DNA from: a virus
Lineage: Duplodnaviria; Caudoviricetes
DNA: 60,647 bases
IMG/VR virus record: IMGVR_UViG_3300005805_000094
Coordinates: 1 to 60,647 of that record
Direction: 5' to 3' (one strand)
Below are positions 1 through 51,462 of the stretch, piece after piece. The position numbers and the translations under genes are program-made. Below the pieces are notes generated by a model. The model did no database searches and was not told where the DNA came from. It worked only from the letters and a program-made list of their open reading frames with translations. Positions within the stretch are counted from its first letter, which is position 1. Each line of letters starts with the position of its first letter.

Positions 1-45
1 TGGGTTGGCGAGAACGCTCATATGGAGTGGTTGCTTAATAGATAA
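1..45 (+). CDS. 3' end of small early ORF (partial)
   Basis: Open frame WVGENAHMEWLLNR* ending just before the same hairpin that follows other early ORFs. Confidence 0.4.
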   Translation, partial: WVGENAHMEWLLNR

Positions 46-50
46 ACAAA

Positions 51-89
51 CCCGAAGGGGTGGGGCGAAAGCCCTGCCCCGACAAGGGG
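51..89 (+). terminator. GC-rich hairpin family copy 1
   Basis: CCCGAA-GGGGTGGGGC-GAAA-GCCCTGCCCC-GACAAGGGG; related copies at 3141, 3511, 3793. Confidence 0.6.
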
Positions 90-98
90 TGGCAGAGG

Positions 99-157
99 CC
101 AAGGAAAACGCTCGCCAAAATAAATCCGAATTATCTTGATGACCATATTTTTGGGAA
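99..157 (+). repeat. ~60-bp unknown repeated motif copy 1
   Basis: AGGAAAACGC..GCnAAATAAATCC..ACCATATTTTtGGG; copies at ~1434, ~1921, ~4576. Confidence 0.8.
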
Positions 158-165
158 CCGGGAGC

Positions 166-196
166 AACTTTACATAATAAATAGTTATGTAAAGTT
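166..196. other. Symmetric XerD-arm (dif-like) palindrome
   Basis: AACTTTACATAA-TAAATAG-TTATGTAAAGTT; arms resemble the XerD half of dif. Confidence 0.65.
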
Positions 197-221
197 GGGC
201 ACCGGGCCGGCGGGTCGAAAG

Positions 222-244
222 TTATCCACAGCCCCTGTGGAAAA
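222..244. promoter_or_regulatory. Inverted pair of DnaA boxes
   Basis: TTATCCACA (222-230) and TGTGGAAAA (236-244), both fit TTWTNCACA. Confidence 0.7.
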
Positions 245-270
245 AAATTTAAGAAACTTGCGGTTTTGAC

Positions 271-299
271 TTGCAATTGTATGACATAGCACCTATAAT
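271..299 (+). promoter_or_regulatory. Early sigma70-type promoter
   Basis: TTGCAA-17-TATAAT with TGTATGACA in the spacer and an A-tract upstream. Confidence 0.7.
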
Positions 300-320
300 T
301 GACATATGGAGGTAAACAAA

Positions 321-572
321 ATGAGAACATTACAAGCAGAACTAAATCGTTTTAATCGGAAAGCATTTGACGCAGGCTACGCCTACGCCTATGCCCAGAT
401 TAAAAGTCGGGCAGAAATTACTAAAGTTGCGCCCGAATTATCAGATAAAGAATTGTTAGAAGCGTGGGATAGCGCAGACATCGGATTAGTAGATGACAAC
501 GGCTATGCCTTTAATAACGAATTACTACTAGACCAATTCATAGCAGGATACGAAAGCGCATACGAAAACTAA
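321..572 (+). CDS. Hypothetical early protein
   Basis: ORF with GGAGG SD before ATG 321 (track start 306). Confidence 0.8.
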   Translation: MRTLQAELNRFNRKAFDAGYAYAYAQIKSRAEITKVAPELSDKELLEAWDSADIGLVDDNGYAFNNELLLDQFIAGYESAYEN

Positions 573-577
573 AAAAA

Positions 578-616
578 TATCGGGTCTGAGGTTGTCAAAC
601 AATCTCAGACCCGATA
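578..616. repeat. Inverted repeat overlapping a promoter
   Basis: TATCGGGTCTGAG..CTCAGACCCGATA enclosing TTGTCA, with TAAAAT at its right end. Confidence 0.7.
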
Positions 617-653
617 AAATTAAATTAACAAAACAAAACAGAGAGGGCACAAA

Positions 654-1016
654 ATGAAAACAGCGTTACACGTAAGAACAAACGGAGACATACTAGAAAC
701 AGACCTAGAACCAAACTCGCTACAGGCTTTGCAATTTGCCGTCAATGGCTTAGTGCAGGCAATTGACATAGACGAGTTCACAATGTGGTGCAACGATGAA
801 GGCAAAATCTTAAACTTGCCTCACAACCCATTAGGGCAAGCGTTGTGGACATATCGCTACGGAAACACTGACTACATTGTCGGCGATATTGTAATCACTG
901 GTGGCACAGACGCAGAAGGCGAAACTCTCGGACTGACTAGAAGCCAAGTTCAGAGACTGCGCACCGTTGCGCAAGCCGTCAGGCACTATGTAGAACCCCA
1001 CATTGAGGTTCTGTAG
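654..1016 (+). CDS. DUF3846-like protein
   Basis: LQALQFAVNGLVQAID..MWCNDEGKILNLPHN..IVGDIVITG pattern. Confidence 0.75.
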   Translation: MKTALHVRTNGDILETDLEPNSLQALQFAVNGLVQAIDIDEFTMWCNDEGKILNLPHNPLGQALWTYRYGNTDYIVGDIVITGGTDAEGETLGLTRSQVQRLRTVAQAVRHYVEPHIEVL

Positions 1017-1077
1017 AAAATTAAAATAATCGCACTCGCGAGTTGTAAAAGGCTCGCGAGTGTGATACACTATTATT

Positions 1078-1242
1078 ATGAACAAGACACAAGAACTCAC
1101 CCAACTATTGGACAATATGGAAGTGCCCGAAGGGAGAAAAGGCGACTTAGGTTGGCTTGCCCGAAATCTGGCAATCCGCAACTCAGAGCACCCCGACTTT
1201 ATGAGGGCAAGAAATCTTGTATCCGAGTTGCGAAACTCTTAA
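1078..1242 (+). CDS. Leaderless small protein (54 aa, MNKTQELTQLL...), not in ORF track
   Basis: TG-n-TACACT extended -10 a few nt before ATG; clean frame to TAA. Confidence 0.65.
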   Translation: MNKTQELTQLLDNMEVPEGRKGDLGWLARNLAIRNSEHPDFMRARNLVSELRNS

Positions 1243-1262
1243 AAGTGTGATACACTATTATT

Positions 1263-1403
1263 ATGAACAAAACACAAAACACAAAAAAGCGCAGAGGGTG
1301 GAACGACGCTGACGCGCGGGCATTCGCCGACGGGCAGCGCCTTCGGGCAGCGACAATCCCGGGCAAGCGGAAGGCAGCACCGTCAGCCCGAGAGTGGAAC
1401 TGA
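1263..1403 (+). CDS. Leaderless small basic protein (46 aa, MNKTQNTKKRRGW...), not in ORF track
   Basis: Same GTGTGATACACTATTATTATGAACAA promoter/start block as 1078. Confidence 0.6.
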   Translation: MNKTQNTKKRRGWNDADARAFADGQRLRAATIPGKRKAAPSAREWN

Positions 1404-1433
1404 CGCGAGGACGGCCGGGTGCCAAGCCAGCCC

Positions 1434-1495
1434 GAGGAAAACGCTGCGCAAAATAAATCCGAAATATAACAACTACCATATTTTGGGGAGACGGG
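1434..1495 (+). repeat. ~60-bp unknown repeated motif copy 2
   Basis: GAGGAAAACGCTGCGCAAAATAAATCCGA..ACCATATTTTGGGGAGACGGG. Confidence 0.8.
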
Positions 1496-1528
1496 AGCAA
1501 GTGCCGGGGCAAGCGGGCCGGTCAATAC

Positions 1529-1557
1529 AGTGTATCACAGAATAATTAGTTTGTCAA
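1529..1557 (-). promoter_or_regulatory. Leftward promoter
   Basis: TTGACA-17-TACACT with TG extension on the minus strand. Confidence 0.65.
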
Positions 1558-1662
1558 CCTGAAAAAAATTTATTTATTTTTGTTTTGAGGTTGGTTTTTG
1601 TCTTACAAGGTCTTACAATGAAATAAGTGAGGAATAAGCCTCACTCTTACTAGGAGGTAGTA

Positions 1663-1812
1663 ATGGCATTAGAGATACCCGAGAAAGTTAGCGATATGGC
1701 AAAATCGCTGGCAGAAGCATTACAAGAACTTGCGTTTACGCCAGGCATACCGAAAAGCCAAGAAATGTGGCTGTTCAGTGTCGCCGAGACTTTAGGCGAA
1801 ATTTACAATTAA
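1663..1812 (+). CDS. Small protein (49 aa, MALEIPEKV...), not in ORF track
   Basis: AGGAGGT SD; promoter TTGGTT-17-TACAAT at 1591-1619. Confidence 0.75.
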   Translation: MALEIPEKVSDMAKSLAEALQELAFTPGIPKSQEMWLFSVAETLGEIYN

Positions 1813-1821
1813 ACCCAAGAC

Positions 1822-1886
1822 TGTGTAAGGGGTAGCGTTATGGCGAGAAATCAGGTCGCCCTAAAAGAAGGTCTACCCCTTACACA
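1822..1886. other. Long stem-loop
   Basis: 14-bp TGTGTAAGGGGTAG/CTACCCCTTACACA stem with inner GGCGA/TCGCC hairpin. Confidence 0.6.
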
Positions 1887-1920
1887 AGAAAGGGGGCGGC
1901 CGGGTGCCGAGCCCAGGGTC

Positions 1921-1977
1921 AAGGAAAACGCCACGCGCTAAATAAATCCATTTAAAACGGAACACCATATTTTGGGC
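1921..1977 (+). repeat. ~60-bp unknown repeated motif copy 3
   Basis: AAGGAAAACGCCACGCGCTAAATAAATCC..ACCATATTTTGGG. Confidence 0.8.
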
Positions 1978-1991
1978 GCGGAGGCAGGGGC

Positions 1992-2022
1992 AACTTTACA
2001 TAATAAATAGTTATGTAAAGTT
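1992..2022. other. Symmetric XerD-arm (dif-like) palindrome
   Basis: Identical to 166-196. Confidence 0.65.
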
Positions 2023-2035
2023 CGGGGGCACGGAC

Positions 2036-2064
2036 CGAACATATGTTCGCCGAACAAGTGTTCG
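2036..2064. promoter_or_regulatory. Tandem LexA (SOS) boxes
   Basis: CGAAC-ATAT-GTTCG and CGAAC-AAGT-GTTCG match the Gram-positive/actinobacterial CGAAC-N4-GTTCG box. Confidence 0.8.
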
Positions 2065-2122
2065 GGCAATAGGTAAGTCGGCGAGGCTTTCGCCCCACCG
2101 ACCCGACCCGATTATCTGAGTG

Positions 2123-2443
2123 CTAAATCCTTTCCCACATATGCCCACCGAAATCTAACAATTGTGGAATTACAATTTTGGTCTGAATTTGTCGGCAATT
2201 CTTAAACGGCTTAATGCTTTCATTGAGATAGCGACCAATTGACACCGATGTCATTAACTCAGTGAATTCGTCAAAATCTACTCCGTCATATTCGTAAGTT
2301 TTGCCACTAATGAAAGTTACCGAAAGAGTTCCCTTTGTATAATAGAGTTTGCCATTCTCTATGTCGTAGGTGTCAGTTTCGCCACTGACGAACTCAATTC
2401 GGGTAACTGCTTGACTTGTTAGGCTTTCTATTGCGATACGGAT
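2123..2443 (-). CDS. KTSC domain protein with non-canonical (ATC) start, not in ORF track
   Basis: TLSVTFISGKTYEYDGVDFDEFTELMTSVSIGRYLNESIKPF KTSC pattern; AAGGAGGT SD 5 nt before ATC; in-frame TAA just upstream. Confidence 0.7.
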   Translation of the reverse strand: MRIAIESLTSQAVTRIEFVSGETDTYDIENGKLYYTKGTLSVTFISGKTYEYDGVDFDEFTELMTSVSIGRYLNESIKPFKNCRQIQTKIVIPQLLDFGGHMWERI

Positions 2444-2551
2444 AACTTACCTCCTTGTAAGAGTGGCGTTTTTGCCACTAATAAAATTGTACCACACTGT
2501 AAGACAAAAATGACACATTTTGACAAGTTTCTGAAATTTTTTTTTACGCTA

Positions 2552-2565
2552 CGAACAAGTGTTCG
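2552..2565. promoter_or_regulatory. LexA box
   Basis: CGAACAAGTGTTCG. Confidence 0.75.
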
Positions 2566-2710
2566 CCAGACGGCATTTTGGCTTTGCTGTATAACAGCCT
2601 ATTAGACGCATTAGGAAGCGTTTTGAGAGGCTCTAAAAAAAATAAGAGACTAGGGCAAAGATAGACCACTGTCTAACAACCTGACGCATCTGGAAGCGTC
2701 TGGAACGGGG

Positions 2711-2785
2711 CGAACATATGTTCGGTCGGCAACTTTACATAACAAATAGTTATGTCAAGTTGAGGGCGGGGCGAACAAGTGTTTG
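2711..2785. promoter_or_regulatory. LexA box + XerD-arm palindrome + imperfect LexA box
   Basis: CGAACATATGTTCG (2711-2724); AACTTTACATAA-CAAATAG-TTATGTCAAGTT (2731-2761); CGAACAAGTGTTTG (2772-2785). Confidence 0.75.
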
Positions 2786-2824
2786 GGGGTGTGAAATATG
2801 TTACACAAAAGTTACACAAATAAC

Positions 2825-2853
2825 TTGACAAATGTCTAACAACCTGATACACT
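2825..2853 (+). promoter_or_regulatory. Early promoter with TGTCTAACA spacer motif
   Basis: TTGACA-17-TACACT. Confidence 0.75.
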
Positions 2854-2898
2854 GTATTTAGTGAGGTAAAAGGCTTCACACTTAGGAAGGGGAACAAA

Positions 2899-3138
2899 AT
2901 GGAAGGAATTATCGGGAACAGGGTGGCAATGCCAGCCAACCCAACAGCGTGGCTTATCGCCAACGCACGCAAGGGAGCAATGCTCTACACACGAGACGGG
3001 CAGACGGTGGCAATCATCAACGCCAACACGGTCTACACAGACCCAGACACGGGCGCAAAATTGCGACCACTCTACGCCTCAGAGGGCAAAGGGCGAAGGG
3101 TCTACGAGCCTCGCCCAACACGCCCAATGCTGGACTAG
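2899..3138 (+). CDS. Hypothetical early protein (paralog of 4879..5289)
   Basis: Promoter and SD upstream; shares TAWLIANA.xGAM motif. Confidence 0.8.
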   Translation: MEGIIGNRVAMPANPTAWLIANARKGAMLYTRDGQTVAIINANTVYTDPDTGAKLRPLYASEGKGRRVYEPRPTRPMLD

Positions 3139-3140
3139 AA

Positions 3141-3180
3141 CTCCCCGAAGGGGAAGGGTGAAAGCCCTTCCCCGAAGGAG
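3141..3180 (+). terminator. GC-rich hairpin family copy 2
   Basis: GGGGAAGGGT-GAAA-GCCCTTCCCC right after the stop codon. Confidence 0.6.
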
Positions 3181-3289
3181 GGCGACAGAGGCAGACACGG
3201 GCGACGACGGGCAAAAAAAAAGTTAGAAATAACTTGCTTTTTGTTTAACAAGATGATACAATGAAACCAACAACAACAAAGGAGAAAAA

Positions 3290-3508
3290 ATGCACGAACA
3301 AGGGATACAAGACAGAAACCTAGTAAGTATGAAGGGGACGCCGAGGAGCGTTTTTGCCAATGGCAAAACCGTAGAAATCTGGTGCTCAAGCCCTACGGGC
3401 GACAGTTCAGACACCTCAATCCTCACTCTTACTTGCCTCACAAGTCAGCAGGCGGACATAATCGCCGAGACGTGGCGCAAAGTCTGGGGACTTCCACACT
3501 ACAACTAG
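3290..3508 (+). CDS. Hypothetical early protein
   Basis: AAGGAG SD, promoter at 3234-3262, hairpin after stop. Confidence 0.8.
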   Translation: MHEQGIQDRNLVSMKGTPRSVFANGKTVEIWCSSPTGDSSDTSILTLTCLTSQQADIIAETWRKVWGLPHYN

Positions 3509-3510
3509 AC

Positions 3511-3552
3511 CTCCCCGAAGGGGTGGGGCTTGCGCCCCACCCCGACAAGGGG
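3511..3552 (+). terminator. GC-rich hairpin family copy 3
   Basis: GGGGTGGGGC-TTGC-GCCCCACCCC. Confidence 0.6.
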
Positions 3553-3656
3553 CGGCCAGAGGCAGAAATCGGCGAGCAAAGAAAAAAATAATTAGCCGAA
3601 AATGCTTGACAAATTTTTAAAGTGTGTTATACTAGTATTCAGGAGGGAAGAACAAA

Positions 3657-3791
3657 ATGACACGAAAAGAACAAAACAAAATCACGAGGGAGACGCACGA
3701 GCGTGTAGAGATATACGACTGGGCGCTAGACCCCGAAATAAACGAGGACTTCGGGCAGTGGCACGAGGAACTCGCGCAAGACGACTACTAA
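3657..3791 (+). CDS. Small acidic protein (44 aa, MTRKEQNKI...EIYDWA...), not in ORF track
   Basis: TTGACA/TATACT promoter at 3606-3633, AGGAGG SD, hairpin after stop. Confidence 0.7.
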   Translation: MTRKEQNKITRETHERVEIYDWALDPEINEDFGQWHEELAQDDY

Positions 3792-3792
3792 A

Positions 3793-3826
3793 TCTCCCGA
3801 AGGGGTGGGGCGCGAGCCCCGCCCCA
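3793..3826 (+). terminator. GC-rich hairpin family copy 4
   Basis: GGGGTGGGGC-GCGA-GCCCCGCCCC. Confidence 0.6.
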
Positions 3827-3872
3827 GGAAGACGACAGCCCCAAGGGATTGTTGCGCCCAAGGGCTAGACGC

Positions 3873-3891
3873 AACTTTACATAACTATTTA
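3873..3891. other. XerD-arm half-site
   Basis: AACTTTACATAA-CTATTTA: same arm and spacer as the full palindromes, second arm lost. Confidence 0.5.
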
Positions 3892-3924
3892 TCTTGGGTT
3901 ACACCGAGGAAGGAAAGGAGAAGA

Positions 3925-3987
3925 GTGTTTGTTGGGTTAGGGCTAATGGTCTACGGGCTGTATTGGTTAATTAAAAAAATAATTTAA
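3925..3987 (+). CDS. Possible 20-aa membrane peptide
   Basis: AAGGAG SD before GTG; hydrophobic MFVGLGLMVYGLYWLIKKII. Confidence 0.35.
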   Translation: MFVGLGLMVYGLYWLIKKII

Positions 3988-4052
3988 TTTAGTTGTAATT
4001 TGTTTAACATAATGCTATACTGTAATGGCGGAGAGAAAGGAAGAGGAGAACA

Positions 4053-4145
4053 ATGGTCATAGAAATTTATGATTGGGCGTGCGCAGTCCCGGTGGCGGTT
4101 GCCGTCGTAATTGTGTTCATACTCAAAACAAAAAAAGTTAAATAA
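4053..4145 (+). CDS. 30-aa membrane peptide (MVIEIYDWACAVPV...), not in ORF track
   Basis: GAGGAG SD, promoter at 3993-4021, hairpin downstream. Confidence 0.55.
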   Translation: MVIEIYDWACAVPVAVAVVIVFILKTKKVK

Positions 4146-4154
4146 TCTGAGGGC

Positions 4155-4300
4155 CGAGCCTCGCGGGTGGACAAGCCACCTGCGGGGCTCGCTCGCGGGC
4201 GATGACCGGCACCGGCGCAGGACAGCCCAAGGGAAAAGTGAGGTCTGACGTCAGGTCTTTATTTTCCGCACGAGGAAGGGAAGGGAAGAGACAGTCTCTC
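4155..4300 (-). ncRNA. Candidate sRNA with a pyrimidine-rich anti-SD-like tract
   Basis: Minus-strand TTGACT-17-TACACT promoter (4306-4334), no credible ORF, hairpin at 4155-4192. Confidence 0.35.
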
Positions 4301-4403
4301 TTTATAGTGTATCACATATCGAGCACAAAGTCAAGGGGAAAAATATAAAAAAAATATATATTAATTAGTTGCTATTTGTCTAACACCGTGCTATACTGTA
4401 ATT

Positions 4404-4535
4404 GTAAAGTTCGCAGGTAACCCCTCGCGAACAGACTGTGAGCATATGCCTACGGCGCGGGCACGAGGGCGGTCGGGCGATAAACCCCGATAAACTCGGA
4501 TGACACAGGCAGTGGGTGAAAGCCCCACGTGAATT
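4404..4535 (+). ncRNA. Candidate structured ncRNA
   Basis: Promoter at 4369-4397 followed by several stems and no ORF with an SD. Confidence 0.45.
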
Positions 4536-4575
4536 CCTAGGGCGGCGGGCCAGCGAGTCCGGGGCCCGACGGCCC

Positions 4576-4640
4576 AAGGAAAACGCCGTGCGCTAAATAA
4601 ATCCGATATTGGTGGAACACCATATTTTTGGGAGACGGGG
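4576..4640 (+). repeat. ~60-bp unknown repeated motif copy 4
   Basis: AAGGAAAACGCCGTGCGCTAAATAAATCCGA..ACCATATTTTTGGGAGACGGG. Confidence 0.8.
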
Positions 4641-4646
4641 GCCGAC

Positions 4647-4737
4647 CGAACACTTGTTCGCCGAACACTTGTTTGGGGGTGCGCGACCACTCTGCGTGGT
4701 TGTTAGGTGAGCCTAACAAAATTGCCTCTGTGGATAA
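4647..4737. promoter_or_regulatory. Two LexA boxes, IdeR/DtxR-like palindrome and DnaA box
   Basis: CGAACACTTGTTCG (4647), CGAACACTTGTTTG (4662), TTGTTAGGTGAGCCTAACAA (4700-4719), TGTGGATAA (4729-4737). Confidence 0.7.
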
Positions 4738-4878
4738 CTTCGTGCGCTTGTGCGCGCGTGGCGTGGCCACTTGCGCGCGCGTGGCGTGGCAATTTTCGCC
4801 TATATATGACTAAAAAAAAATAAAAAAAATCGTAAAAAGGTTGTTGCTATTTGTCTAACAATGCGGTAGAAAATAGGT

Positions 4879-5289
4879 ATGACAACAACGAGCCACAACC
4901 GCGAAACCCTCGCTACTCGTTGCGTCATAGTAAAGGGTAATGAAATGTCCGAATACGGAATTGCCGAAACTGGCAAAAGCAACAGCAACACCTACGCAAT
5001 GCGCGACTACTCGCGCAAGGCAACTAAAGAGAATACGCCAGTGCGCTATATCACTCGCGTCAGTGAGCCAGTCAATGCCACCGCGTGGCTCATTGCTAAC
5101 GCTCACAATGGCGCAATGGTGCGCACGCTCAACGGCGTTAAGCACTACGAAATCGGGCACGCACTCGGCGTATTTGACAAGACAACCGAGACTACGCACT
5201 ATCCGCTTATGCCTAAGCGCGGTGCGCGTCGTCGCGGTGCGCGTGGCGTATCGGTTGAGCGTGCGTTGTCAATTTACGACAACGACTAG
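4879..5289 (+). CDS. Hypothetical early protein
   Basis: ORF downstream of promoter 4844-4872; paralog of 2899..3138; start may be 4945. Confidence 0.75.
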   Translation: MTTTSHNRETLATRCVIVKGNEMSEYGIAETGKSNSNTYAMRDYSRKATKENTPVRYITRVSEPVNATAWLIANAHNGAMVRTLNGVKHYEIGHALGVFDKTTETTHYPLMPKRGARRRGARGVSVERALSIYDND

Positions 5290-5298
5290 AAACCGTTA

Positions 5299-5399
5299 GC
5301 GCGAGATGTCGCGAGTGTGAACCCCCCCCACACTCGCGACACTCGCAAGGTTCACGAACTCAAAAGCGTGAGCCTTGCGAGTGTGAAAGTCTCACACTC
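5299..5399. repeat. Nested CACTCGC/GCGAGTG palindromes
   Basis: TGTCGCGAGTGTG..CACACTCGCGACA overlapping CACTCGCAAGG..CCTTGCGAGTG. Confidence 0.6.
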
Positions 5400-5429
5400 T
5401 TAACAACAACAACGAAAGAGAGAAAACTA

Positions 5430-6071
5430 ATGTTCACTTACGGAATTGGCAAAACCGCCAAACGACACACAATCAAACCGAAGCGCGCGCGCGTAATGCT
5501 TGCGCGTTTTGAGCGCTGGCTAGATAGCACTCAAGGCGCGTCAGTGTTCTTTACTGTGCTCACTTGCTTACTCACAACGCTAGTTGCGTTAGCGATAACG
5601 CAAGAGCGCACAAATTTTGCGATGACACTCTTTAGCATTGTGTCTGTGTTCGCGATACTCGCGACCATTGGCGCGCTAATAGTCAGTGATGAGACAAGCA
5701 AGCGCACCACGAAACAATGGCGCGCTATTTTCGCGCGCGAATACAACGCGCAAGCGAAAGAGAAACTCACACTCTCGCAAGAGTTAGAGCGCGAAACTGT
5801 CGCGCGTAAAGAGTTGAGCGCACTACTCGCACGAGTTGAGCGAGACGCACAACTAGAGCGCGAGAACCTAGAACACAACTTGCGCGCCTATAAGCGAGAC
5901 CTAGCGAGTAATCGTCAAAACTACTCGCGCGCACTTGAGACGGTAAACGAGTTGCGCGAGTTAATCGCGAGTTATGAAAGCCAGTTGCGCGAATTATCAG
6001 GCGCGCTATTTGACGCAAAAGTAAATAGTGGCGATATTGACTTTACGAATTACGGGAAAGACATCGACTAG
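5430..6071 (+). CDS. Membrane protein with two TM helices and a coiled coil
   Basis: Two hydrophobic stretches followed by heptad-rich E/R/L region. Confidence 0.75.
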   Translation: MFTYGIGKTAKRHTIKPKRARVMLARFERWLDSTQGASVFFTVLTCLLTTLVALAITQERTNFAMTLFSIVSVFAILATIGALIVSDETSKRTTKQWRAIFAREYNAQAKEKLTLSQELERETVARKELSALLARVERDAQLERENLEHNLRAYKRDLASNRQNYSRALETVNELRELIASYESQLRELSGALFDAKVNSGDIDFTNYGKDID

Positions 6072-6305
6072 GCAACACTCGCGCACGATAGGCGCGCACA
6101 CTCTCGCAATCGTTGAGAGTGTGCGCGCCTTTATCGTTTACGCGCTCACACTCTCGCGCAATCTCTCGCGCTCACACTCTGAGCAAGGCAAGCGCCCTAC
6201 CGCAAAAGGCGCGCCACAATCGCGCCAGACGCGCGCAAGGCACGCGCCTAGTGTCATACAAGCCCAGACAATTTTGGCACGCTTAAAACGCGTCTAAACG
6301 CGGCT

Positions 6306-6390
6306 TGTTAGGCTGACCTAACAGCGGGCGAACAAGTGTTCGCCGAACAAGTGTTCGGTCGGGGACACTTATCCACAGCCCTGTGGATAA
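6306..6390. promoter_or_regulatory. IdeR-like palindrome, two LexA boxes, inverted DnaA box pair
   Basis: TGTTAGGCTGACCTAACA (6306-6323); CGAACAAGTGTTCG x2 (6329, 6344); TTATCCACA-GCCC-TGTGGATAA (6369-6390). Confidence 0.75.
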
Positions 6391-6516
6391 ATACCCCCCC
6401 CTATCTGACCACGCTGAGCGTTCGAGTGGGCGCCGCACTAAGCACTCCCCAAATCTGGAGCCTAATTCACCTGTATAGGTAGCCTTGCCTAATCCTTATA
6501 CTTGATATCATAACAA

Positions 6517-6587
6517 CGGAGTATCGGCTGGAATTGCTTTCCGGCCTTTCTACCGCTGACAGACCGGTACCGATACTTCGTCTGTCA
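6517..6587 (+). ncRNA. Candidate 5'-leader RNA: three-way junction plus pseudoknot
   Basis: 11-bp P1, P2, P3, and P3 loop TGACAGA complementary to TCTGTCA at 6581-6587. Confidence 0.45.
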
Positions 6588-6612
6588 CTCAACGAAAGGA
6601 CGATTACACCCA

Positions 6613-6846
6613 ATGACTTACCGAAGCACTTACTACCTAAACATCACAGAAAAGCAAATGCAACTGCTTGAAGAACTTGTCAAGCAGGAACGACAACGCT
6701 TGTTTGAAGAAAAGAGCGCACGCAACGAGCGAGTAATAGCATTAAAGAATTTGCAAGTTGCCCTATCTAGGTCGATTTACTTTTACGATAAGCATTCCGC
6801 CGCAGATAAAAGTAAACGGAATGGCATTAAAGGACAATCAGCATGA
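6613..6846 (+). CDS. Hypothetical protein
   Basis: ORF with AAAGGA SD; overlaps the next gene (ATGA). Confidence 0.7.
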   Translation: MTYRSTYYLNITEKQMQLLEELVKQERQRLFEEKSARNERVIALKNLQVALSRSIYFYDKHSAADKSKRNGIKGQSA

Positions 6847-7250
6847 ACGAACTACAACTCAAAGTTGAAGCACTCAGAAAGAAAATTAACCCGTCCTATG
6901 GACAGTATGTAACGGTTGATGAAGGTTGGTATCAAATCATTGTTGACTGTGATAATGAACTGACTGCAATCGACCCTAATTACTCCATCCTGCAAATCAA
7001 AGAGAAGTTTGGTGGACTGCGCTACTACATGTCTCCTTCAAACGATACGACCGTAGAACAAAGAGACGAGATGCATAAGGTCATATCAAAGTACGAAGCG
7101 GTAGCCGCTCAGACTTGTGAAGCAACAGGCAAGCCCGGCGTTCTTATGAAGTCAGTTGGTGGCTGGCTTAAAACAGTAAACCCTGAATACGCCGCCTCTG
7201 CCCGTCACTACGCACGGTATGCAGTTGTTAGCCCTAGTGTTGAATCATGA
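6843..7250 (+). CDS. Conserved phage hypothetical protein
   Basis: GW..QIKEKFGGLRYY..TCE.TG.PG motif common in phages. Confidence 0.8.
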   Translation: MNELQLKVEALRKKINPSYGQYVTVDEGWYQIIVDCDNELTAIDPNYSILQIKEKFGGLRYYMSPSNDTTVEQRDEMHKVISKYEAVAAQTCEATGKPGVLMKSVGGWLKTVNPEYAASARHYARYAVVSPSVES

Positions 7251-7426
7251 ACAAACACTCAGGTATTGTCTTTCATCACAATTGTGTCAAATGCGATAAG
7301 TCCATGATTGACTCAGACGGCACACATATTGGTGGATTTATGACATCCATTCACCCTTTTGATACTCCGGATGAAGCAATTATCGCTAAATGGTGCTGGT
7401 CATGCGCGATAAAATTCAAACCATGA
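7247..7426 (+). CDS. Small Zn-finger-like protein (59 aa), not in ORF track
   Basis: CVKC...CWSC; ATGA coupling at both ends. Confidence 0.6.
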   Translation: MNKHSGIVFHHNCVKCDKSMIDSDGTHIGGFMTSIHPFDTPDEAIIAKWCWSCAIKFKP

Positions 7427-7566
7427 GGTATCTCTTTTATATCTATGGGGTCGTTGTAGGTATTGGCATTGGCGTGTTCATAGGTATCTCTTATAAAACT
7501 TTTCGCAAATAGTCTTTACATATAACTGCGTAACACTCCTTGTATATGTTAACAAGGAGAAAACCA

Positions 7567-7818
7567 ATGCTTGAATCAGTAACCACACCCCTAATCGCAA
7601 TCCTCCCCACAGATGGTGGAGAGTTAAAAATGTACGGACCGTTTGATAATGGAATTGCCGCACTTGAGTGGTATGAGAGACAACCCAAAGACGTAAGGAT
7701 TACCTTCAGGCCGTTGCGCAATCCTGATGTCGTTAGGACCTACAACGACTTCTATTTACCCATATGGATAGAGAACGAAGATAGGGAGTTCTCAGTCGTC
7801 GCGAGGACGAGCCAGTAA
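7567..7818 (+). CDS. Hypothetical protein
   Basis: AAGGAG SD before ATG 7567. Confidence 0.7.
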   Translation: MLESVTTPLIAILPTDGGELKMYGPFDNGIAALEWYERQPKDVRITFRPLRNPDVVRTYNDFYLPIWIENEDREFSVVARTSQ

Positions 7819-8097
7819 GCGCTGGGCCCTCAGAATAAGGCTGCGTTCACGGGCGCTTTTGCCTCCCCAGATACCAAAGCGTTCGTTTGTATCCAAGGCG
7901 AAATCAAGACACTCCATCCGAACGGAGCATTCTTTACAAATACTCTTTGCTCTTCGTAGTCTTTCCACATCTCCGGGTGCGGGGTAGAAAGTATCTACTG
8001 GTTCATCTAAGCAGTTTCTGTTTCTTATCCATTTAGGTCGGTTCATCTGAATTCCGATAGTTGGATAATCAAGGTCGTACTCATCCCATTGCGCCAT
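7792..8097 (-). CDS. whiB: WhiB family transcription factor
   Basis: C..FYP..AKSICKECSVRMEC..GIWGG signature. Confidence 0.93.
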   Translation of the reverse strand: MAQWDEYDLDYPTIGIQMNRPKWIRNRNCLDEPVDTFYPAPGDVERLRRAKSICKECSVRMECLDFALDTNERFGIWGGKSARERSLILRAQRLLARPRDD

Positions 8098-8260
8098 AAG
8101 TGTGCGATAGTGTAACAGAGTATGCAACTGCAATCGGTGGTTGTTGTTATTGGGTGTGTGCTACTGTGTGTGTTATGAATTTCGCAATAGAACGTAAACA
8201 GAAAAGCAAACCGGCGGGATGCATAAATACAAAAGGGGTCGAATAGTTGTGATATACGAG

Positions 8261-8449
8261 ATGGTCATGAAAAAAATTTCGTTTTCGAATGACGAGGCCC
8301 GTAAAGAACTTTTGGCCCATTTAGTAAATGAGCAAACCATCGGCTGGCATTCAGTATCGCCACCACCTAGTGAGCGGTCTCTTGTTCTTCGCAAGATGAT
8401 TCAACAAATTCATCAGGCGTTAGAGGAGCATGAAAATGCAGGACGATGA
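8261..8449 (+). CDS. Hypothetical protein
   Basis: ORF in a coupled operon. Confidence 0.55.
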   Translation: MVMKKISFSNDEARKELLAHLVNEQTIGWHSVSPPPSERSLVLRKMIQQIHQALEEHENAGR

Positions 8450-8903
8450 TTCGCTATACGACAACCCAGAAAACGACCTTGAGTATCAATTGGATTTATT
8501 TTGGGACGACGTTTTGTTAGGAGAAGACGAACCTTCTGGTTTGACTTATATACCGGTTCATGTCATCGAAGACGCAATAGAACGTCTCAAGCGCTATCAA
8601 GTTGTTGTAGAGAATCTGACAAAAGTAGGAGATTTCCTATGGCTAGAGAATTTAAAAAAATACGGAGGCAGAAAGATTCACGAAAGAGAAACACCAAGAG
8701 GTTCAATAAACGACAAGGTGTTTAGGAATATGAGTGCATTTGTAAATAAGTTGGGCGATGAAATCACTCTTGATGATGCATATGTGGAACTTGCGTTGTC
8801 AATGGTCAGGATTGACCAAGGAGACCCAACAGGGTTTGCGCAGTATTTGAATAAAGAAGATGATTTGTTTGAAAGACTGGATAGCGAGATTGGCGATGGC
8901 TGA
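8430..8903 (+). CDS. Acidic hypothetical protein
   Basis: GAGGAG SD, 157 aa. Confidence 0.75.
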   Translation: MKMQDDDSLYDNPENDLEYQLDLFWDDVLLGEDEPSGLTYIPVHVIEDAIERLKRYQVVVENLTKVGDFLWLENLKKYGGRKIHERETPRGSINDKVFRNMSAFVNKLGDEITLDDAYVELALSMVRIDQGDPTGFAQYLNKEDDLFERLDSEIGDG

Positions 8904-9213
8904 AAAAGTAAGAGTGATGCCTGTTTCGAAAGAACCAAGAAAACTCAGCGAGGCAGACGCAGCAAGACTGCGTCGTAGGCGAGAAGCGCTTGATGCATTA
9001 AGGAAGCAAACCAAAATTGCGGAAAACCGCTTGAGGTGGGATATTTTCAACACATGGCGCGTTGGCGGTGGAACCTTGGTTGCGATTGCCGAAGCGACCA
9101 ACTATCGAAAAGATTGGGTGTGGAGACTAATCAACAGAATCAGGAACAACGATAAGTTTTTGCAAATGGCTATTGACGAATATTTGAAAGACAACCCAGA
9201 TGCAACACTCTGA
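8896..9213 (+). CDS. Putative HTH-like DNA-binding protein
   Basis: GTLVAIAEATNYRKDWVWRLI helix-turn-helix-like segment. Confidence 0.55.
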   Translation: MAEKVRVMPVSKEPRKLSEADAARLRRRREALDALRKQTKIAENRLRWDIFNTWRVGGGTLVAIAEATNYRKDWVWRLINRIRNNDKFLQMAIDEYLKDNPDATL

Positions 9214-9457
9214 TGAGTCAATCCCACTTCGGGACCGCCTTACCTATCCGGCTGGCGCAAACGAAGAAAAATATCCATATGACGAATGGTTTGATGGTTC
9301 GGTTTGGAAATTAAAAATGTACGAAGATTTTTTTGTGCATCCCGGGTCTATGCGTTCCGCTTTATATCACGCTGCACGCAAAAGAAACTTTAAAGTAAAA
9401 GTACACATACCTACAACAGAAGATGCGGTTTATGTTCAGGTGATAGATAATGAATGA
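9200..9457 (+). CDS. Hypothetical protein
   Basis: KYPYDEWFDG..W.L..EDF motif seen in phage small proteins. Confidence 0.7.
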   Translation: MQHSDESIPLRDRLTYPAGANEEKYPYDEWFDGSVWKLKMYEDFFVHPGSMRSALYHAARKRNFKVKVHIPTTEDAVYVQVIDNE

Positions 9458-10040
9458 TGAAAAAACTTCAAATGACTATCAACAAAGCATGGAGACAGCA
9501 GATGTAAGAATGAGCCTTGTTGTTAGGAAGGGTGCAATGATTATCGAACTCATGAAAGGCGGGCTGACTCCTACGCGGGCCGCTGAAGTGGCGGAGATTT
9601 CAAAAAACACAGTTTCCAACTGGATTAAACGAGGCCTGACAGAACAACGAAGATTGGAACAAGGCGGAGAACCCGACTTAAACGAAAAAATTTATATGGA
9701 TTTTGCTCTCGGTGCACTCAAGGCAGAATCGGAAGCGCAATCAGGTTTGGTTCTTGCTTGGTTTAGGGAGGCAAGACAAGGAGACTGGAAGGCAGCAGAG
9801 CGATTCTTGGCTAAACGTTGGCCACAAGAATGGGGCGATAACAACACCGTCAAACTAGAAGTGTCGGCAATGGGAATACAGTCAGATGCTCCAACTCTTC
9901 AGTCCCAAGAAGAAGACGACTCAAAAAAGCGAGCAGTTCTTGCCGCGTTGGTTGAAGCAGGCGACTTACCAAGCAATGTTTTAAGCGCGTGGGATAAGGA
10001 TGATGTAATTGATGCGGAAGTAGTAGAAGATGATGATTGA
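9450..10040 (+). CDS. Putative terminase small subunit
   Basis: N-terminal HTH, DWKAAERFLAKRWPQEWG motif, position before terL. Confidence 0.7.
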   Translation: MNDEKTSNDYQQSMETADVRMSLVVRKGAMIIELMKGGLTPTRAAEVAEISKNTVSNWIKRGLTEQRRLEQGGEPDLNEKIYMDFALGALKAESEAQSGLVLAWFREARQGDWKAAERFLAKRWPQEWGDNNTVKLEVSAMGIQSDAPTLQSQEEDDSKKRAVLAALVEAGDLPSNVLSAWDKDDVIDAEVVEDDD

Positions 10041-10131
10041 TACCAAATTGACACCAGCGGGCGCTAAGTGTCCGTGTTCTCCGGTAAACAATAATCCATT
10101 TTGCGATTCAAACCAAGACGATGACGACTAG
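10030..10131 (+). CDS. Possible 33-aa Cys-rich peptide
   Basis: Fills the terS-terL gap, overlapping both; CPC..FC. Confidence 0.3.
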   Translation: MMIDTKLTPAGAKCPCSPVNNNPFCDSNQDDDD

Positions 10132-11458
10132 AGAAAACGTTCGCGCGCAACTTGCGAGTCTTGCTGACTACAAAGTCCCTTGCGGGATAAACCTTCCTCA
10201 CAACATGCACCCCAAACAGGGCGCGTTTTTAACATGGTCAACAACCAGAGAGGCCTTATATGGTGGCGCTGCTGGTGGAGGTAAGTCTGACGCCTTACTA
10301 ATGGCCGCATTGCAGTACGTATGCATTCCCGGGTATTCAGCACTTCTTTTACGACAAACATATCCACAGTTAGCGGGTCCTGATGGATTTATCGACCGAT
10401 GCAATGCATGGCTGTCGGGAACAGATGCAACGTATGTTGGAACAAACAAACGATGGACATTCCCGTCTGGCGCAACACTGTCATTTGACCACTGTGAAAG
10501 AGATGACGACAGATACAAGTTTCAATCTTTTGCTTATCACTTTGTTGGAGTAGACGAATTGACTCAGTGGAAGACGGACCGTGTTTATCGATACGTAGGA
10601 TTTTCCCGAGTTAGAAAACCATCAACCTCTGATGCGTTGCTCAGGTGCCCAACTTGTGGCATGTCTTCGGCGGATATCCCTCTTCGTGTGAGGGCTGCCA
10701 CCAACCCTGGAGGCCCAGGCAATAACTGGGTGTACGAGCGTTTCATCCTTGGGAAAACTCAAGAAAGAAAATTTATGCCTGCAAAAATTTCGGATAACCC
10801 CTCTCTTGACGCGGGCACATACATCAAGTCTTTGGATGAATTGGACGCAATAGAGCGAGCAAGATTGCTTGACGGAAACTGGGAAGTTCGAGAAGAAGGC
10901 GGGATGTTCAAGCGAGAGTGGTTTACAATAACTGGCGTCTTTCCAGAAGATATGCAAAAAGTTCGCTATTGGGATTTGGCTGCTACTGCACCCAAACACG
11001 GCAGTGACCCAGACTGGACGGTTGGCGCCTTGGTGGGTCACAAAGAAGGAAGATATTTTGTTCTTGATGTTCGACGGATGAGGGGCACCCCTTATGATGT
11101 TGAAAAGTTAATCAAAATCACATCGGAAGAAGATGGGATTTCAACAAGGATTGTTATGGAACAAGAACCCGGTTCTTCTGGGGTAAACGTGATTGACCAC
11201 TACGCTCGGCATGTAGTGCCAGGCTTTAACTTCAAAGGTCAAAAATCAAACACATCCAAGAAAGATAGAGCAGGCGTTTTTTCCGCTGCGTCTGAGGCGG
11301 GTAACGTCATGTTGGCTCGAGCCACTTGGAATACTCCTTTCCTAGATGAATGCGAAGTGTTTCCCTACGGAGCCCACGATGACCAAGTCGACGCGATATC
11401 GGGCGCAATCCAAGCCCTTGTCTCACGAAAAATGAAACAGGTTAGAATTATTGTATGA
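10121..11458 (+). CDS. terL: Terminase large subunit
   Basis: Walker A YGGAAGGGKS, Walker B VGVDE, ATNPGG coupling motif, nuclease WDLA..HDDQVDA. Confidence 0.95.
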   Translation: MTTRENVRAQLASLADYKVPCGINLPHNMHPKQGAFLTWSTTREALYGGAAGGGKSDALLMAALQYVCIPGYSALLLRQTYPQLAGPDGFIDRCNAWLSGTDATYVGTNKRWTFPSGATLSFDHCERDDDRYKFQSFAYHFVGVDELTQWKTDRVYRYVGFSRVRKPSTSDALLRCPTCGMSSADIPLRVRAATNPGGPGNNWVYERFILGKTQERKFMPAKISDNPSLDAGTYIKSLDELDAIERARLLDGNWEVREEGGMFKREWFTITGVFPEDMQKVRYWDLAATAPKHGSDPDWTVGALVGHKEGRYFVLDVRRMRGTPYDVEKLIKITSEEDGISTRIVMEQEPGSSGVNVIDHYARHVVPGFNFKGQKSNTSKKDRAGVFSAASEAGNVMLARATWNTPFLDECEVFPYGAHDDQVDAISGAIQALVSRKMKQVRIIV

Positions 11459-11925
11459 AAAAATTCTCCCACAAAGGATATTGTGAAGGGCGAAAACAAA
11501 ATTGTAAATATAAAAAGTGCGGGGCATTTGGAAATCTATATTTAGTTAACGGACAAATTGATACTCTTGCAAGGCTAAAAGGCTGTATGGATAAGCCTTT
11601 TAGTTTACCTAAAAACAAACTTGAGCCAACACCACTTAACTTTGCTTCCAATAAAACAAAAAACAATGCTGCCAAAAGAGAAGAAGTCCGGCGTATAGTC
11701 ACGCAACGCGACATGGGGTTGTGTCAGGCAAAGTTCCTGGTAGGGTCAATTACATGTTCAGCACGTCTGGACATTGACGAAATCATCCCTAGGGGTCGAG
11801 GAGGCAACTACTTAGACCCAGATAACTGCCAGGTACTGTGCAGAGCGCACCACCGGTGGAAGCACGATAACCCAGCCGAGGCTGAAAGGTTAGGACTTAC
11901 AAAGTCTCTACCCCCTCGTTCCTGA
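11455..11925 (+). CDS. HNH endonuclease
   Basis: RD..CQ..DEIIPRGRGG..NCQVLCRAHH..KH. Confidence 0.8.
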   Translation: MKKFSHKGYCEGRKQNCKYKKCGAFGNLYLVNGQIDTLARLKGCMDKPFSLPKNKLEPTPLNFASNKTKNNAAKREEVRRIVTQRDMGLCQAKFLVGSITCSARLDIDEIIPRGRGGNYLDPDNCQVLCRAHHRWKHDNPAEAERLGLTKSLPPRS

Positions 11926-38298: not shown

Positions 38299-38760
38299 AT
38301 GACGAGATTTGTAGGAACCCCGCTACGCGGGATTGAGTTTAGTAGCGCAAGCGATGAGGCTATTTCCGCTCGCGTAAATAACGATGCTCATCCCCGAGTA
38401 AGAATTGACGCCGGCGGACGACTTACTTGGTCATCTGGTTCAGTAGCCGGAGATACGACACTCTATCGAATTTCTGCAAATACCCTGTATACAGATGATG
38501 TATTTCAGGCCGCATTAGGACTTGTTACTCTTACGACTAGCGGCACCCCATCAGCAACACTTCCAAACGGCGCTTTGGCCGTAGATACAACAAATAACAA
38601 GTTCTTTTTTAGGTCAAATTCTCAGTGGACAGAAGTATCCGGAATCGGAAGTGGTGGCTTACTGTCAGGCGATGTAGATGGTGGTAATCTCTCTCCTGAG
38701 ATTTACGAAGCAGAAGTAACAAACTATGTAATCGTGGGATTTGATGGAGGTACGCTGTAA
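38299..38760 (+). CDS. Virion structural protein
   Basis: Ser/Thr/Gly-rich, in the fibre operon. Confidence 0.7.
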   Translation: MTRFVGTPLRGIEFSSASDEAISARVNNDAHPRVRIDAGGRLTWSSGSVAGDTTLYRISANTLYTDDVFQAALGLVTLTTSGTPSATLPNGALAVDTTNNKFFFRSNSQWTEVSGIGSGGLLSGDVDGGNLSPEIYEAEVTNYVIVGFDGGTL

Positions 38761-46316: not shown

Positions 46317-46318
46317 TC

Positions 46319-47602: not shown

Positions 47603-47649
47603 TAAAAAGTGATATTATTGTTTCTACATCAACGGGAAAGTGAACAGCG

Positions 47650-49818: not shown

Positions 49819-49825
49819 AAATTTG

Positions 49826-50746: not shown

Positions 50747-51405
50747 CGCAACTTCACTGTCTTTTGATGACCAACACGAACGAGCGGGTCAACCCAGATG
50801 TCAATTCCCATCTGATACACCTTTTCGCACCACGACGTATCTTCGCCCATAAGTGGAAATTTATATTCCTTTTCTCCTGTTTCAGGATTTTGAATTGTTA
50901 CGTGAGTAGAGGAAAACCACGGACGTTCAAGGCGTTCAAATACTCCGCAAGCAACTGCCAAAAATCCAAACCCAACTCCACGAGTAGTGAATGGCGCCTT
51001 AAGTTTTAAGATGTCGTTCTTATGTAGTGGCGGACCAAGCGGAACAGGGTACACCGTTACTTCTTCGCTCTCCATCATGTAGCACCCGGAGATGACTTGT
51101 TTGTCTGAGTTTAGAAGTCTGAAGAAGTCATCTGGCTCCCATTCAATGTCTGAGTCAATCCAGAACAACTTGTCGTATGTCCACTCGCCATTGCCTGGCT
51201 TGCGACAGTTTTTGTCATTGAAGGCACTTCCGCCAACTGTTCGCTCTCGGGCATCAGCCACGTGCGAGGAGTACTCAGTCATGAAGTTCCAAGTGATGTT
51301 GTTTTGGTTCATGTAATAGGTGACTTTCAACAGGCTCCGAACGTAGGCGGGAACCATGCTTGAGCCAGGGGTGCAGATAACTACATTAAAGTGTGGAATT
51401 GTCAT
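50734..51405 (-). CDS. Glycosyltransferase (GT-A)
   Basis: WIDSDI DxD, GFGF, GED..WC. Confidence 0.8.
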   Translation of the reverse strand: MTIPHFNVVICTPGSSMVPAYVRSLLKVTYYMNQNNITWNFMTEYSSHVADARERTVGGSAFNDKNCRKPGNGEWTYDKLFWIDSDIEWEPDDFFRLLNSDKQVISGCYMMESEEVTVYPVPLGPPLHKNDILKLKAPFTTRGVGFGFLAVACGVFERLERPWFSSTHVTIQNPETGEKEYKFPLMGEDTSWCEKVYQMGIDIWVDPLVRVGHQKTVKLRWPS

Positions 51406-51462
51406 AGGGTCATTCTATACATGCTCACTTAAGACGCGGCGGTATGTGTTATCATTTTACCT

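Follow-up and report, generated by a model that had tools for sequence, protein, structure and literature searches.

Binding sites for host factors in lytic phages, the DnaA boxes in the injection stop region (iss) of coliphage T5, and the shuffling PeSL (early promoter stem-loop) cassettes of T4-type phages are already in print. In IMGVR_UViG_3300005805_000094, a viral record of 60,647 nucleotides from what we take to be a virulent-looking freshwater actinophage, positions 1-6500 consist of small early gene cassettes whose spacers hold consensus words for LexA and DnaA, together with words resembling an iron-repressor box. The whole stretch, from 1 to 60,647, is referred to below as the window.

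According to the annotation of the T5 record, the left terminal repeat enters the cell first and iss occupies 9140-10149. Within iss a perfect LexA box (CTGT-N8-ACAG) at 9411 abuts paired DnaA-type boxes (DnaA 9430-9520), and a second module of DnaA and LexA sites is located at 6121-6228 (paired DnaA boxes 6121-6202). The T5 repeats at 9653-9712 match a Fur-box consensus at 14-16 of 19 positions. Paired DnaA boxes are present in 25 T5-like phages, and a model has been proposed in which membrane-bound DnaA stops injection (Davison, preprint 10.1101/866236); the sections of that preprint on the T5 DnaA boxes mention neither the LexA box nor the Fur-like repeats. T5 and the window are alike in having non-coding stretches among small early genes, with paired consensus DnaA boxes (6369-6390 in the window), and in carrying a comparable three-factor set (LexA, DnaA, iron-repressor-like), each in the dialect of its own host. 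In T5 there are two modules, and they belong to a terminal repeat of 10.2 kb that is known to be the first DNA to enter, whereas the sites of the window are spread across many cassettes of an unrelated phage lineage with a presumably actinobacterial host.

The PeSL cassettes are composite terminator/promoter repeats which flank small variable open reading frames (ORFs) and act as exchange points (PMC4122927, PMC2839356). The window resembles them in its stem-loop and early promoter repeats between the small ORFs of a hyperplastic region; its cassettes flank tiny genes, and contigs from other samples join copies, in joints that may be assembly artefacts. It differs in lineage, in an extra 75-nt element, and in a slot of host-regulator sites that is absent from the PeSL abstract. 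Lytic cyanophages carry host NtcA sites and PhoB-controlled genes (PMC3037559, PMC10976474) and are comparable in that a lytic phage has several consensus sites of a host global regulator, by which in the cyanophages its own genes are coupled to the state of the host. The cyanophage sites, however, are promoter elements or activator sites for a single regulator, while the window has sites for two to three or more regulators, abutting one another and with none at an operator position, LexA being a repressor. In colicin operators a pair of LexA boxes, adjacent or overlapping, takes up two dimers and gives tight control (PMC2994835), and phage GIL01 uses host LexA in place of a repressor of its own (PMC4551915). 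The window shares the adjacent double boxes of the colicin operators. The colicin and GIL01 boxes overlap the promoter, and GIL01 is temperate; those of the window stand upstream of the units or in the spaces that separate them, and five clade records yielded neither an integrase nor a resolvase. In a literature search on DnaA boxes together with SOS boxes in phages, none of the papers returned treats phage arrays.

Host-type binding words and their cassettes

The LexA-type box CGAAC-N4-GTTCG is present in seven exact copies (2036, 2051, 2552, 2711, 4647, 6329 and 6344) and in two with one mismatch (2772 and 4662). All nine lie within 2036-6357, and the other 54 kb of the window contains none. 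The DnaA box TTATCCACA has four exact copies (222, 4729, 6369 and 6382), again all within 1-6500 and none in the other 54 kb; it has a one-mismatch partner at 236, while nine further one-mismatch matches, outside this region, are at background level. The iron-box-like word TGTTAGG-N4-CCTAACA (4701 and 6306) and the palindrome arms TTATGTAAAGTT (seven copies, 166-3884) are likewise found inside 1-6500 and not in the remaining 54 kb. As a control we used 500 dinucleotide shuffles of 1-6500, in which the mean counts were 0.006 (LexA), 0.036 (DnaA), 0.002 (palindrome arm) and 0.008 (iron-like), with a maximum of 1; the observed 7 LexA boxes, 4 DnaA boxes, 6 arms and 2 iron-like words were not reached in any shuffle. 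A preliminary description made from the sequence alone had seen such clusters only in this early region, and in this it was right: the counted types are confined to 1-6500. Their enrichment over shuffled sequence is real.

The core of the LexA boxes equals the actinobacterial motif tCGAAC-N4-GNNCGa, obtained by chromatin immunoprecipitation sequencing in Streptomyces venezuelae (PMC9380542). TTATCCACA is the consensus DnaA box and falls within TTWTNCACA (10.1101/866236). The iron-like words agree less well with the IdeR/DmdR1 iron box, a 19-nt inverted repeat TTAGGTTAGGCTAACCTAA (PMC4598388, PMC7174319). By hand alignment they match it at 14 of 19 positions (6303-6321) and at 16 of 19 (4701-4718, opposite strand); 14 of the right-hand 15 positions are matched and the outer left arm is missing. 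The dyad of the words themselves (7-nt arms, 4-nt centre) is shifted by about 2.5 bp from the published box. That one DtxR-type dimer might fit them is a guess. In the boundary block of one relative (L047:5750-5950) four to five iron-like words abut one another, and where two of them join (CTAAC-AAGT-GTTAG) the sequence is close to a LexA box, from which it departs by one symmetric base change.

Three 33-nt palindromes accompany these words. The 11-nt sequence TTATGTAAAGT in their arms is identical to the XerD arm of several proteobacterial dif sites, and is listed as the right (XerD) arm of Bordetella pertussis and Geobacter sulfurreducens (PMC2731167), the comparison extending to no actinobacterial dif. 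The palindromes have a 7-nt centre with like arms inverted, unlike dif, which has a 6-bp centre and unlike XerC and XerD arms, and the arms were absent from 218 other loci (2.1 Mb), close relatives included. On account of the 7-nt centre, the like arms and the absence from relatives we do not class the palindrome as a Xer site. The preliminary description had named four host proteins: its LexA and DnaA sites stand as exact words, its IdeR sites become partial matches and its XerD arm becomes a resemblance. In an unrelated viral contig of 36% G+C (L227:168-195) the 11-nt arms form a perfect 11+6+11 dif-like palindrome 170 nt from the end. A palindrome found in relatives, TGTGAAAGT, was considered as a variant of the 33-nt palindrome and discarded, since hand re-alignment matched only 7 of 13 positions.

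LexA_DNA_bind, Bac_DnaA_C and above-threshold Fe_dep_repress domains were found in none of five phage records of this clade (up to 79% complete). Since these records yielded no DNA-binding domain of the LexA, DnaA or DtxR type encoded by the phages, host proteins would be the simplest readers of the words.

Table 1. Coordinates of site words, cassette elements and marker genes in the window
Feature	Position	Strand	Remarks
GC-rich terminator-like hairpin	51..95	+	Closes upstream unit; repeat family D3
Other D3 hairpins	3144-3192, 3514-3562, 3796-3844		
m65 copy 1 (75 nt)	94..169	+	CCAAGGaAAACGC / AAATAAATCC / N9 / GGAACACCATaTTTT / GGGAGC; nhmmer E=5e-20
m65 copy 2	1427..1502	+	Followed by leftward promoter-like site (1557-1529)
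m65 copy 3	1913..1995	+	
m65 copy 4	4568..4644	+	
33-nt palindrome	165..197		13-nt arms, 7-nt centre
33-nt palindrome, second copy	1991..2023		
33-nt palindrome, third copy	2731..2762		One mismatch in one arm
Lone palindrome arm	3873-3884		
Inverted DnaA-box pair	222..244		TTATCCACA exact plus one-mismatch partner; 27-49 nt upstream of -35 at 271
Sigma-70/sigma-A-like early promoter	271..299	+	Promoter scan; repeat families D1, D2, D9
Further promoters of same class	592-620, 1591-1620, 2825-2853, 3234-3262, 3606-3633, 3993-4021, 4369-4397, 4844-4872		
Tandem LexA-type boxes, 15-bp pitch	2036..2064		Convergent spacer without promoter
Lone LexA-type box	2552..2565		Upstream of leftward promoter of KTSC gene (2126-2446, minus strand)
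LexA box, palindrome, LexA box (one mismatch)	2711..2785		40-114 nt upstream of -35 at 2825
Composite cluster	4647..4737		LexA x2 (4647, 4662), GACCAC...GTGGT palindrome (4683-4699), iron-box-like (4701-4718), DnaA (4729-4737); directly 3' of m65 copy 4; 107-197 nt upstream of -35 at 4844
Boundary cluster	6306..6390		Iron-box-like (6306-6323), LexA x2 (6329, 6344), inverted DnaA pair (6369, 6382); junction of early cassettes and operon leading to terS/terL
whiB-like gene	7792-8133	-	PF02467, E=1.4e-20
terS-like gene (helix-turn-helix, HTH)	9450-10040	+	Sub-cut-off HTH_23 match, 21.9 bits vs 24.6
terL	10121-11458	+	Starts packaging and structural genes

The sites are embedded in a repeated unit (Table 1), which runs from a terminator-like hairpin through a 75-nt element that we call m65, a slot of palindromic words, an A-tract and a sigma-A-like promoter to a tiny gene. 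Coding sequence makes up 48% of 1-6500, which is the right-hand part of a hyperplastic early region of the 20-kb class. Promoter-like sites of the sigma-70 type number 21 here, as against 7.2 +/- 2.5 in the shuffles, and the promoters form repeat families with a common TTTGTCTAACA-like spacer. None of the nine LexA boxes, five DnaA boxes and two iron-like words overlaps any of these 21 sites, and one palindrome arm overlaps a weak promoter-like site (151-178), in agreement with the earlier remark that most sites avoid the -35 and -10. Instead, with the exception of the pair at 2036-2064, the LexA, DnaA and iron-like words are found 27-197 nt upstream of the next -35. The distance from the end of a DnaA pair to the -35 is 26 nt in the window and 17-18 nt in two relatives, that is, about one helical turn apart. 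The pairs at 222/236 and 6369/6382 are inverted, and the relatives have tandem pairs 2 nt apart. The 'GAAAGTTATCCACAGCCTGTGGA' cassette which carries the pair at 222..244 recurs in three relatives (L168, L170 and L171). At the boundary, the succession of abutting IdeR-like, LexA, LexA, DnaA and DnaA sites read by the preliminary description was verified.

The motif which that description had counted four times, without naming it, is m65: four copies, all on the plus strand. A profile built from them brought the count to 46 (E<1e-4) across the window and the early regions of relatives, spaced every 1-2 kb and all on the terL strand. The exact pattern gave 71 matches in IMG/VR, in 42 stretches from 17 contigs, where stretches of one contig may overlap. 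The element, which is lineage-wide, is made up of conserved blocks whose spacing is fixed and whose intervening filler varies. Of 45 copies, 26 are followed within the next 110 nt by one or more recognisable words: DnaA-type in 11 cases, CAC-N5-GTG in 8, LexA in 6, iron-like in 6, the TGTGAAAGT palindrome in 3 and a leftward promoter in 2. Three identities for m65 were tried. RNAalifold on 32 copies predicted no pairs, and a structured RNA was rejected; the frame of the conserved blocks differs among copies on hand translation, and a minus-strand micro-ORF was likewise rejected. That m65 is the sole cassette promoter finds no support, since in two relatives the inspected cassettes all retain a sigma-A-like promoter of their own, placed after m65 and ahead of the gene.

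Twelve scanned products of 321-6071 gave only DUF3846, KTSC and sub-threshold DUF matches in Pfam or PHROGs, and neither they nor eight scanned products of 6613-11925 matched a DNA-binding family above cut-off. Apart from the terS-like HTH match, these 20 products yielded DUF3846, KTSC and weak DUF and HNH matches. Metatranscriptome contigs cover parts of several early genes, where carry-over of DNA is possible; the gaps in this coverage over the words carry no weight. A paralogous family of small proteins with the signature TAWL..NA..GA is encoded at 2899-3138 and 4945-5289 and in relatives L168 and L170, with differing sets of words upstream.

Conservation in relatives and in other phages

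Close relatives were defined as 13 records with a TerL at least 74% identical and with at least 4.3 kb upstream of terL. Exact LexA boxes are found upstream of terL in 12 of these, exact DnaA boxes in 11 and both in 10. Together their upstream portions contain 23 LexA and 32 DnaA boxes in 102 kb; from terL onward there are no LexA and 3 DnaA boxes in 129 kb. In distant relatives (TerL 37-65%) LexA boxes are present in 1 of 13 and DnaA boxes in 2 of 13. Scans of five relatives over their whole records found the LexA boxes either at contig ends or on the same side of terL as the cassettes, and in a 106-kb relative (G001) both contig ends carry them; reversed LexA patterns gave 0-1 matches in these five. 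DnaA boxes are distributed in a similar way, with three to seven per relative. The gene content of the window and of G001 is almost wholly different, while the cassettes are common to both.

The boundary cluster is itself syntenic in relatives, about 3.75 kb upstream of terL. When the block was aligned from nine sequences, 11 of the 18 invariant columns fell within the first LexA box and the DnaA boxes. Absence of the clusters from syntenic regions of related phages had been named beforehand as an outcome that would count against them; the sites are present there. Just to the right of the cluster (6440-6500) is a palindrome, CACCTGTATAGGTG, with a C-tract, which the alignment shows to be conserved in relatives. 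They might serve as a late promoter, as an operator or in the signalling of packaging.

Tandem LexA boxes at the 15-bp pitch were found in 76 other IMG/VR stretches, of 39-68% G+C, with up to four to five boxes in a row. WhiB is encoded by 36 of the 50 records with tandem boxes that were examined. Within 400 nt of the tandem boxes, exact DnaA boxes are about 12-fold denser than in the rest of these loci (17 boxes, 7 loci) and TTAGG-N4-CCTAA words about 14-fold denser (6 words, 5 loci), reversed-pattern controls giving one match (DnaA) and none (iron-like). From these densities it follows that the combination of LexA with DnaA, and in some cases iron-like, words recurs in a minority of the tandem-LexA phages. 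Judged by eye, in two other types of actinophage the tandem boxes either overlap or immediately precede a promoter-like stretch, which is followed by a gene; the gene context of the modules in two other phages gave no clue to replication or packaging. In one 41-kb phage the LexA tandem is located about 1 kb upstream of terL. Modules were within 1 kb of a contig end in four of five records checked and in the outer quarter in 10 of 19 whole-contig loci, or in 17 of 50 records against 12.5 expected. This mild terminal excess can be explained by assembly breaks at repeats, and is not used as evidence.

Readings of the arrays

We tentatively favour, while stopping short of calling it probable, a reading in which host proteins bound by default act as inputs or insulators for the early transcription units. 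Several of the words would be high-affinity sites for proteins that by default occupy DNA in a healthy cell, namely LexA and DnaA, with the TTAGG-N4-CCTAA words probably read by a DtxR/IdeR-type dimer. On the spacers between units the bound proteins may form barriers or insulators, as well as upstream inputs to the early promoters. The early programme would thus be read differently in a host with DNA damage, iron starvation or little DnaA. What the analysis establishes is the sites, their restriction to the early region, their conservation and the lack of phage-encoded homologues of these DNA-binding domains; that proteins bind, and that transcription responds, we infer. In favour count also the placing of the words in promoter-upstream spacers beside A-tracts and the footprint-like conservation of the boxes in the block syntenic with 6306-6390.

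Five findings weigh on the other side. LexA is a repressor, yet no box overlaps a predicted -35 or -10. Around the pair at 2036-2064, in a convergent spacer, the nearest promoter is more than about 400 nt away. The orthologous TAWL..NA..GA genes (2899, 4945 and those of relatives) are preceded by differing words, so that there is no gene-specific wiring. After 19 of 45 m65 copies our patterns recognised no word within 110 nt. Finally, the boxes are closer to consensus than the recA and lexA operators reported for S. venezuelae, a property that would suit equally well or better the soaking up of regulators.

This last idea, in which the arrays act as a sponge for LexA, DnaA and the iron repressor, derepressing the SOS and iron regulons and disturbing the initiation of host replication, we consider rather unlikely. 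Only perfect and near-perfect LexA sites are enriched in 1-6500 (seven exact, two with one mismatch and none with two), and the dense packing at 15-bp pitch reaches four to five in a row in other whiB-positive viral contigs. The words also have no fixed position relative to promoters or genes. However, with about 16 sites in the present fragment and about 10 exact ones in the 79%-complete relative, a single genome would titrate little unless regulator molecules were scarce, and a sponge does not require the fixed position of the boundary cluster. Among the literature matches listed there was no phage case of LexA titration or decoy sites.

Perhaps the boundary cluster is instead a T5-like entry checkpoint, where docked host proteins pause, anchor or protect the incoming DNA. 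T5 offers the precedent of an iss with a LexA box, paired DnaA boxes and Fur-like repeats, and the cluster of the window, syntenic in relatives, occupies a boundary of the same type. A DnaA-docking model is available for the T5-like phages (10.1101/866236), but it is a proposal and itself unproven. The majority of the sites are scattered in cassettes away from the boundary, a 4005-nt DNA contig of another sample runs across the cluster, and no terminal repeat or defined end was found (the window and its relatives are classed as linear, and the ends of G001 are not repeats of each other). We regard a checkpoint as unlikely. A broader version would have a three-protein docking module (LexA, DnaA, iron repressor) arising independently in T5-like coliphages and in freshwater actinophages, as a checkpoint on the entering genome. 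Placed in the first-expressed DNA, such a module might pause or anchor DNA entry, or bar silencers and nucleases from the early promoters, with release upon a change in the state of the host; the iron repressor would be Fur in E. coli and of the IdeR type in actinobacteria. This too we hold to be rather unlikely.

Proteins encoded by the phages themselves, such as early XRE-type regulators, could also be the readers, in which case the likeness to host sites would be mimicry or chance. Relatives code for XRE-like HTH proteins in their cassettes (translations, judged by eye); several words have no host match that can be named, among them GACCAC...GTGGT, the TGTGAAAGT palindrome, the TGTTACAC repeats and the 33-nt palindrome; and in records that are 38-79% complete a reader gene could lie elsewhere. 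Exact identity to the 10 fixed bases of a Gram-positive LexA box and to the 9-mer DnaA box is nevertheless very unlikely to arise by chance, and the LexA/DnaA word pair recurs in viral contigs of 39-68% G+C, with whiB in 36 of 50. No LexA- or DnaA-type domain was found in the five records, and ten early proteins of the window matched no DNA-binding Pfam family at E<=0.1. Phage-encoded readers are distinctly improbable.

Very improbable is a DnaA-dependent origin, or several, marked by the DnaA pairs with the LexA boxes as gates. DnaA pairs or 11-bp tandems do occur in relatives and in other phages, some being followed by a T-rich stretch. The window, however, has three or more separate DnaA sites within 6.5 kb, its relatives have three to seven each, the boundary pair is followed by a C8 tract rather than by an AT-rich unwinding element, and there are no replication genes close by. 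That the repeats are passive recombination linkers, supplying homology for PeSL-like cassette shuffling with a functionless likeness to host sites, is scarcely credible: contigs from other samples do join and break at repeats, and the gene content of the window and G001 has diverged despite common cassettes, but short-sided contig joints can be assembly artefacts, linkers have no need of a LexA or DnaA consensus match, and no columns of the syntenic block are better conserved than the boxes.

Should host LexA, DnaA and an iron repressor indeed occupy these spacers, a large clade of abundant lake phages would read or manipulate three central host signals, namely DNA damage, replication potential and iron, within minutes of the start of infection. 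Because T5 carries a comparable set, the question can be tested directly in E. coli K-12, for which lexA, fur and dnaA mutants and a two-step injection assay exist. A result there could bear on injection stop, which is treated as unresolved in the pertinent sections of 10.1101/866236. The cassettes would also be compact natural multi-input regulatory parts for actinobacterial synthetic biology, and repeat cassettes explain the assembly breaks in the early region of these phages.

Host, record ends and neighbouring features

The window is a complete IMG/VR entry, classed as linear, with a CheckV completeness estimate of 38%. In addition to the genes in Table 1 it codes for a portal, a head protease, a major capsid protein, a ribonucleotide reductase and a fibre-like protein of 2518 residues. 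The whiB gene, which serves as a marker of actinophages (PMC10914622), was found in all five clade records; among 14 control genomes Corynebacterium alone gave a match. The presence of whiB points to an actinobacterial host. By TerL and capsid protein the closest cultured phages are those of Gordonia and Brevibacterium (41-52% identity; TerL 41-44%), and the sequencing runs which contain this phage DNA are lake and freshwater metagenomes. We infer that the host is an uncultured freshwater actinobacterium. A WhiB search of genome contigs for the host found no relative. A search with the ribonucleotide reductase retrieved a single 26-kb contig (L172, 76% identity) in a 'Bacteroidia' metagenome-assembled genome, which is probably a mis-binned relative of the phage. 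No Phage_integrase or Resolvase domain was matched in the five clade records, and no phage Lsr2 was found. Using blastn, positions 1-7000 had no match among GenBank phages, and the 35-nt tandem LexA stretch had only chance-level matches there (E>=1). Rfam (gathering threshold) and ARAGORN found nothing over the whole window.

The preliminary description had placed the array on first-entering DNA. The left end of the record lies within the repeat array, and DNA contigs of another sample from the same study break at repeats (164, 1437, 2019/2033 and 4730). Since contigs break at the same repeats, the left end is an assembly break. The ends of G001 have only cassette repeats in common and do not form a terminal repeat; that this DNA enters first would be conjecture. 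The three roles proposed with it, a brake on ejection, a shield for the DNA end and titration of regulators, would be conjecture too, and the T5 parallel leaves room for an entry checkpoint without proving one. The window and its relatives are classed as linear and incomplete by IMG/VR, and contigs cannot show the ends of a molecule. The k-mer depth in one sequencing run (X2) is about 1.6-fold higher to the left of 8.7 kb; a second run (X6) has no such step, and the difference therefore makes no case for a terminal repeat. Contigs from other samples link m65 copies 1 and 4 (134>4618) and copies 3 and 4 (1954>4643), as well as two promoters (1581>4369); these joints rest on short sides (21-33 nt) and may be assembly artefacts.

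Some smaller features of the region deserve mention. A promoter-like sequence, TTGCTA-17-TATACT, is followed by about 160 nt without an ORF before m65 copy 4 (4369-4560), a candidate small RNA. Strong leftward promoter-like sites on the minus strand at 1529-1557 and 4306-4334 (TTGACA/TTGACT-17-TACACT with TG) point towards the preceding spacer; the one near m65 copy 2 would transcribe this copy in antisense. A duplicated 54-nt block (1039-1092 and 1224-1277) places a TGnTACACT-type -10 about 6 nt before the ATG of the tiny genes at 1078 and 1263, which suggests that these have leaderless mRNAs. Such mRNAs are common in actinobacteria. An HNH-endonuclease-like ORF (11455-11925) is located immediately 3' of terL. 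Farther downstream, 38760-54299 codes for the 2518-residue protein, with an Mtd_N domain, and then for Kelch-repeat proteins, after which glycosyltransferase and sulfotransferase genes occupy the minus strand (49826-57923).

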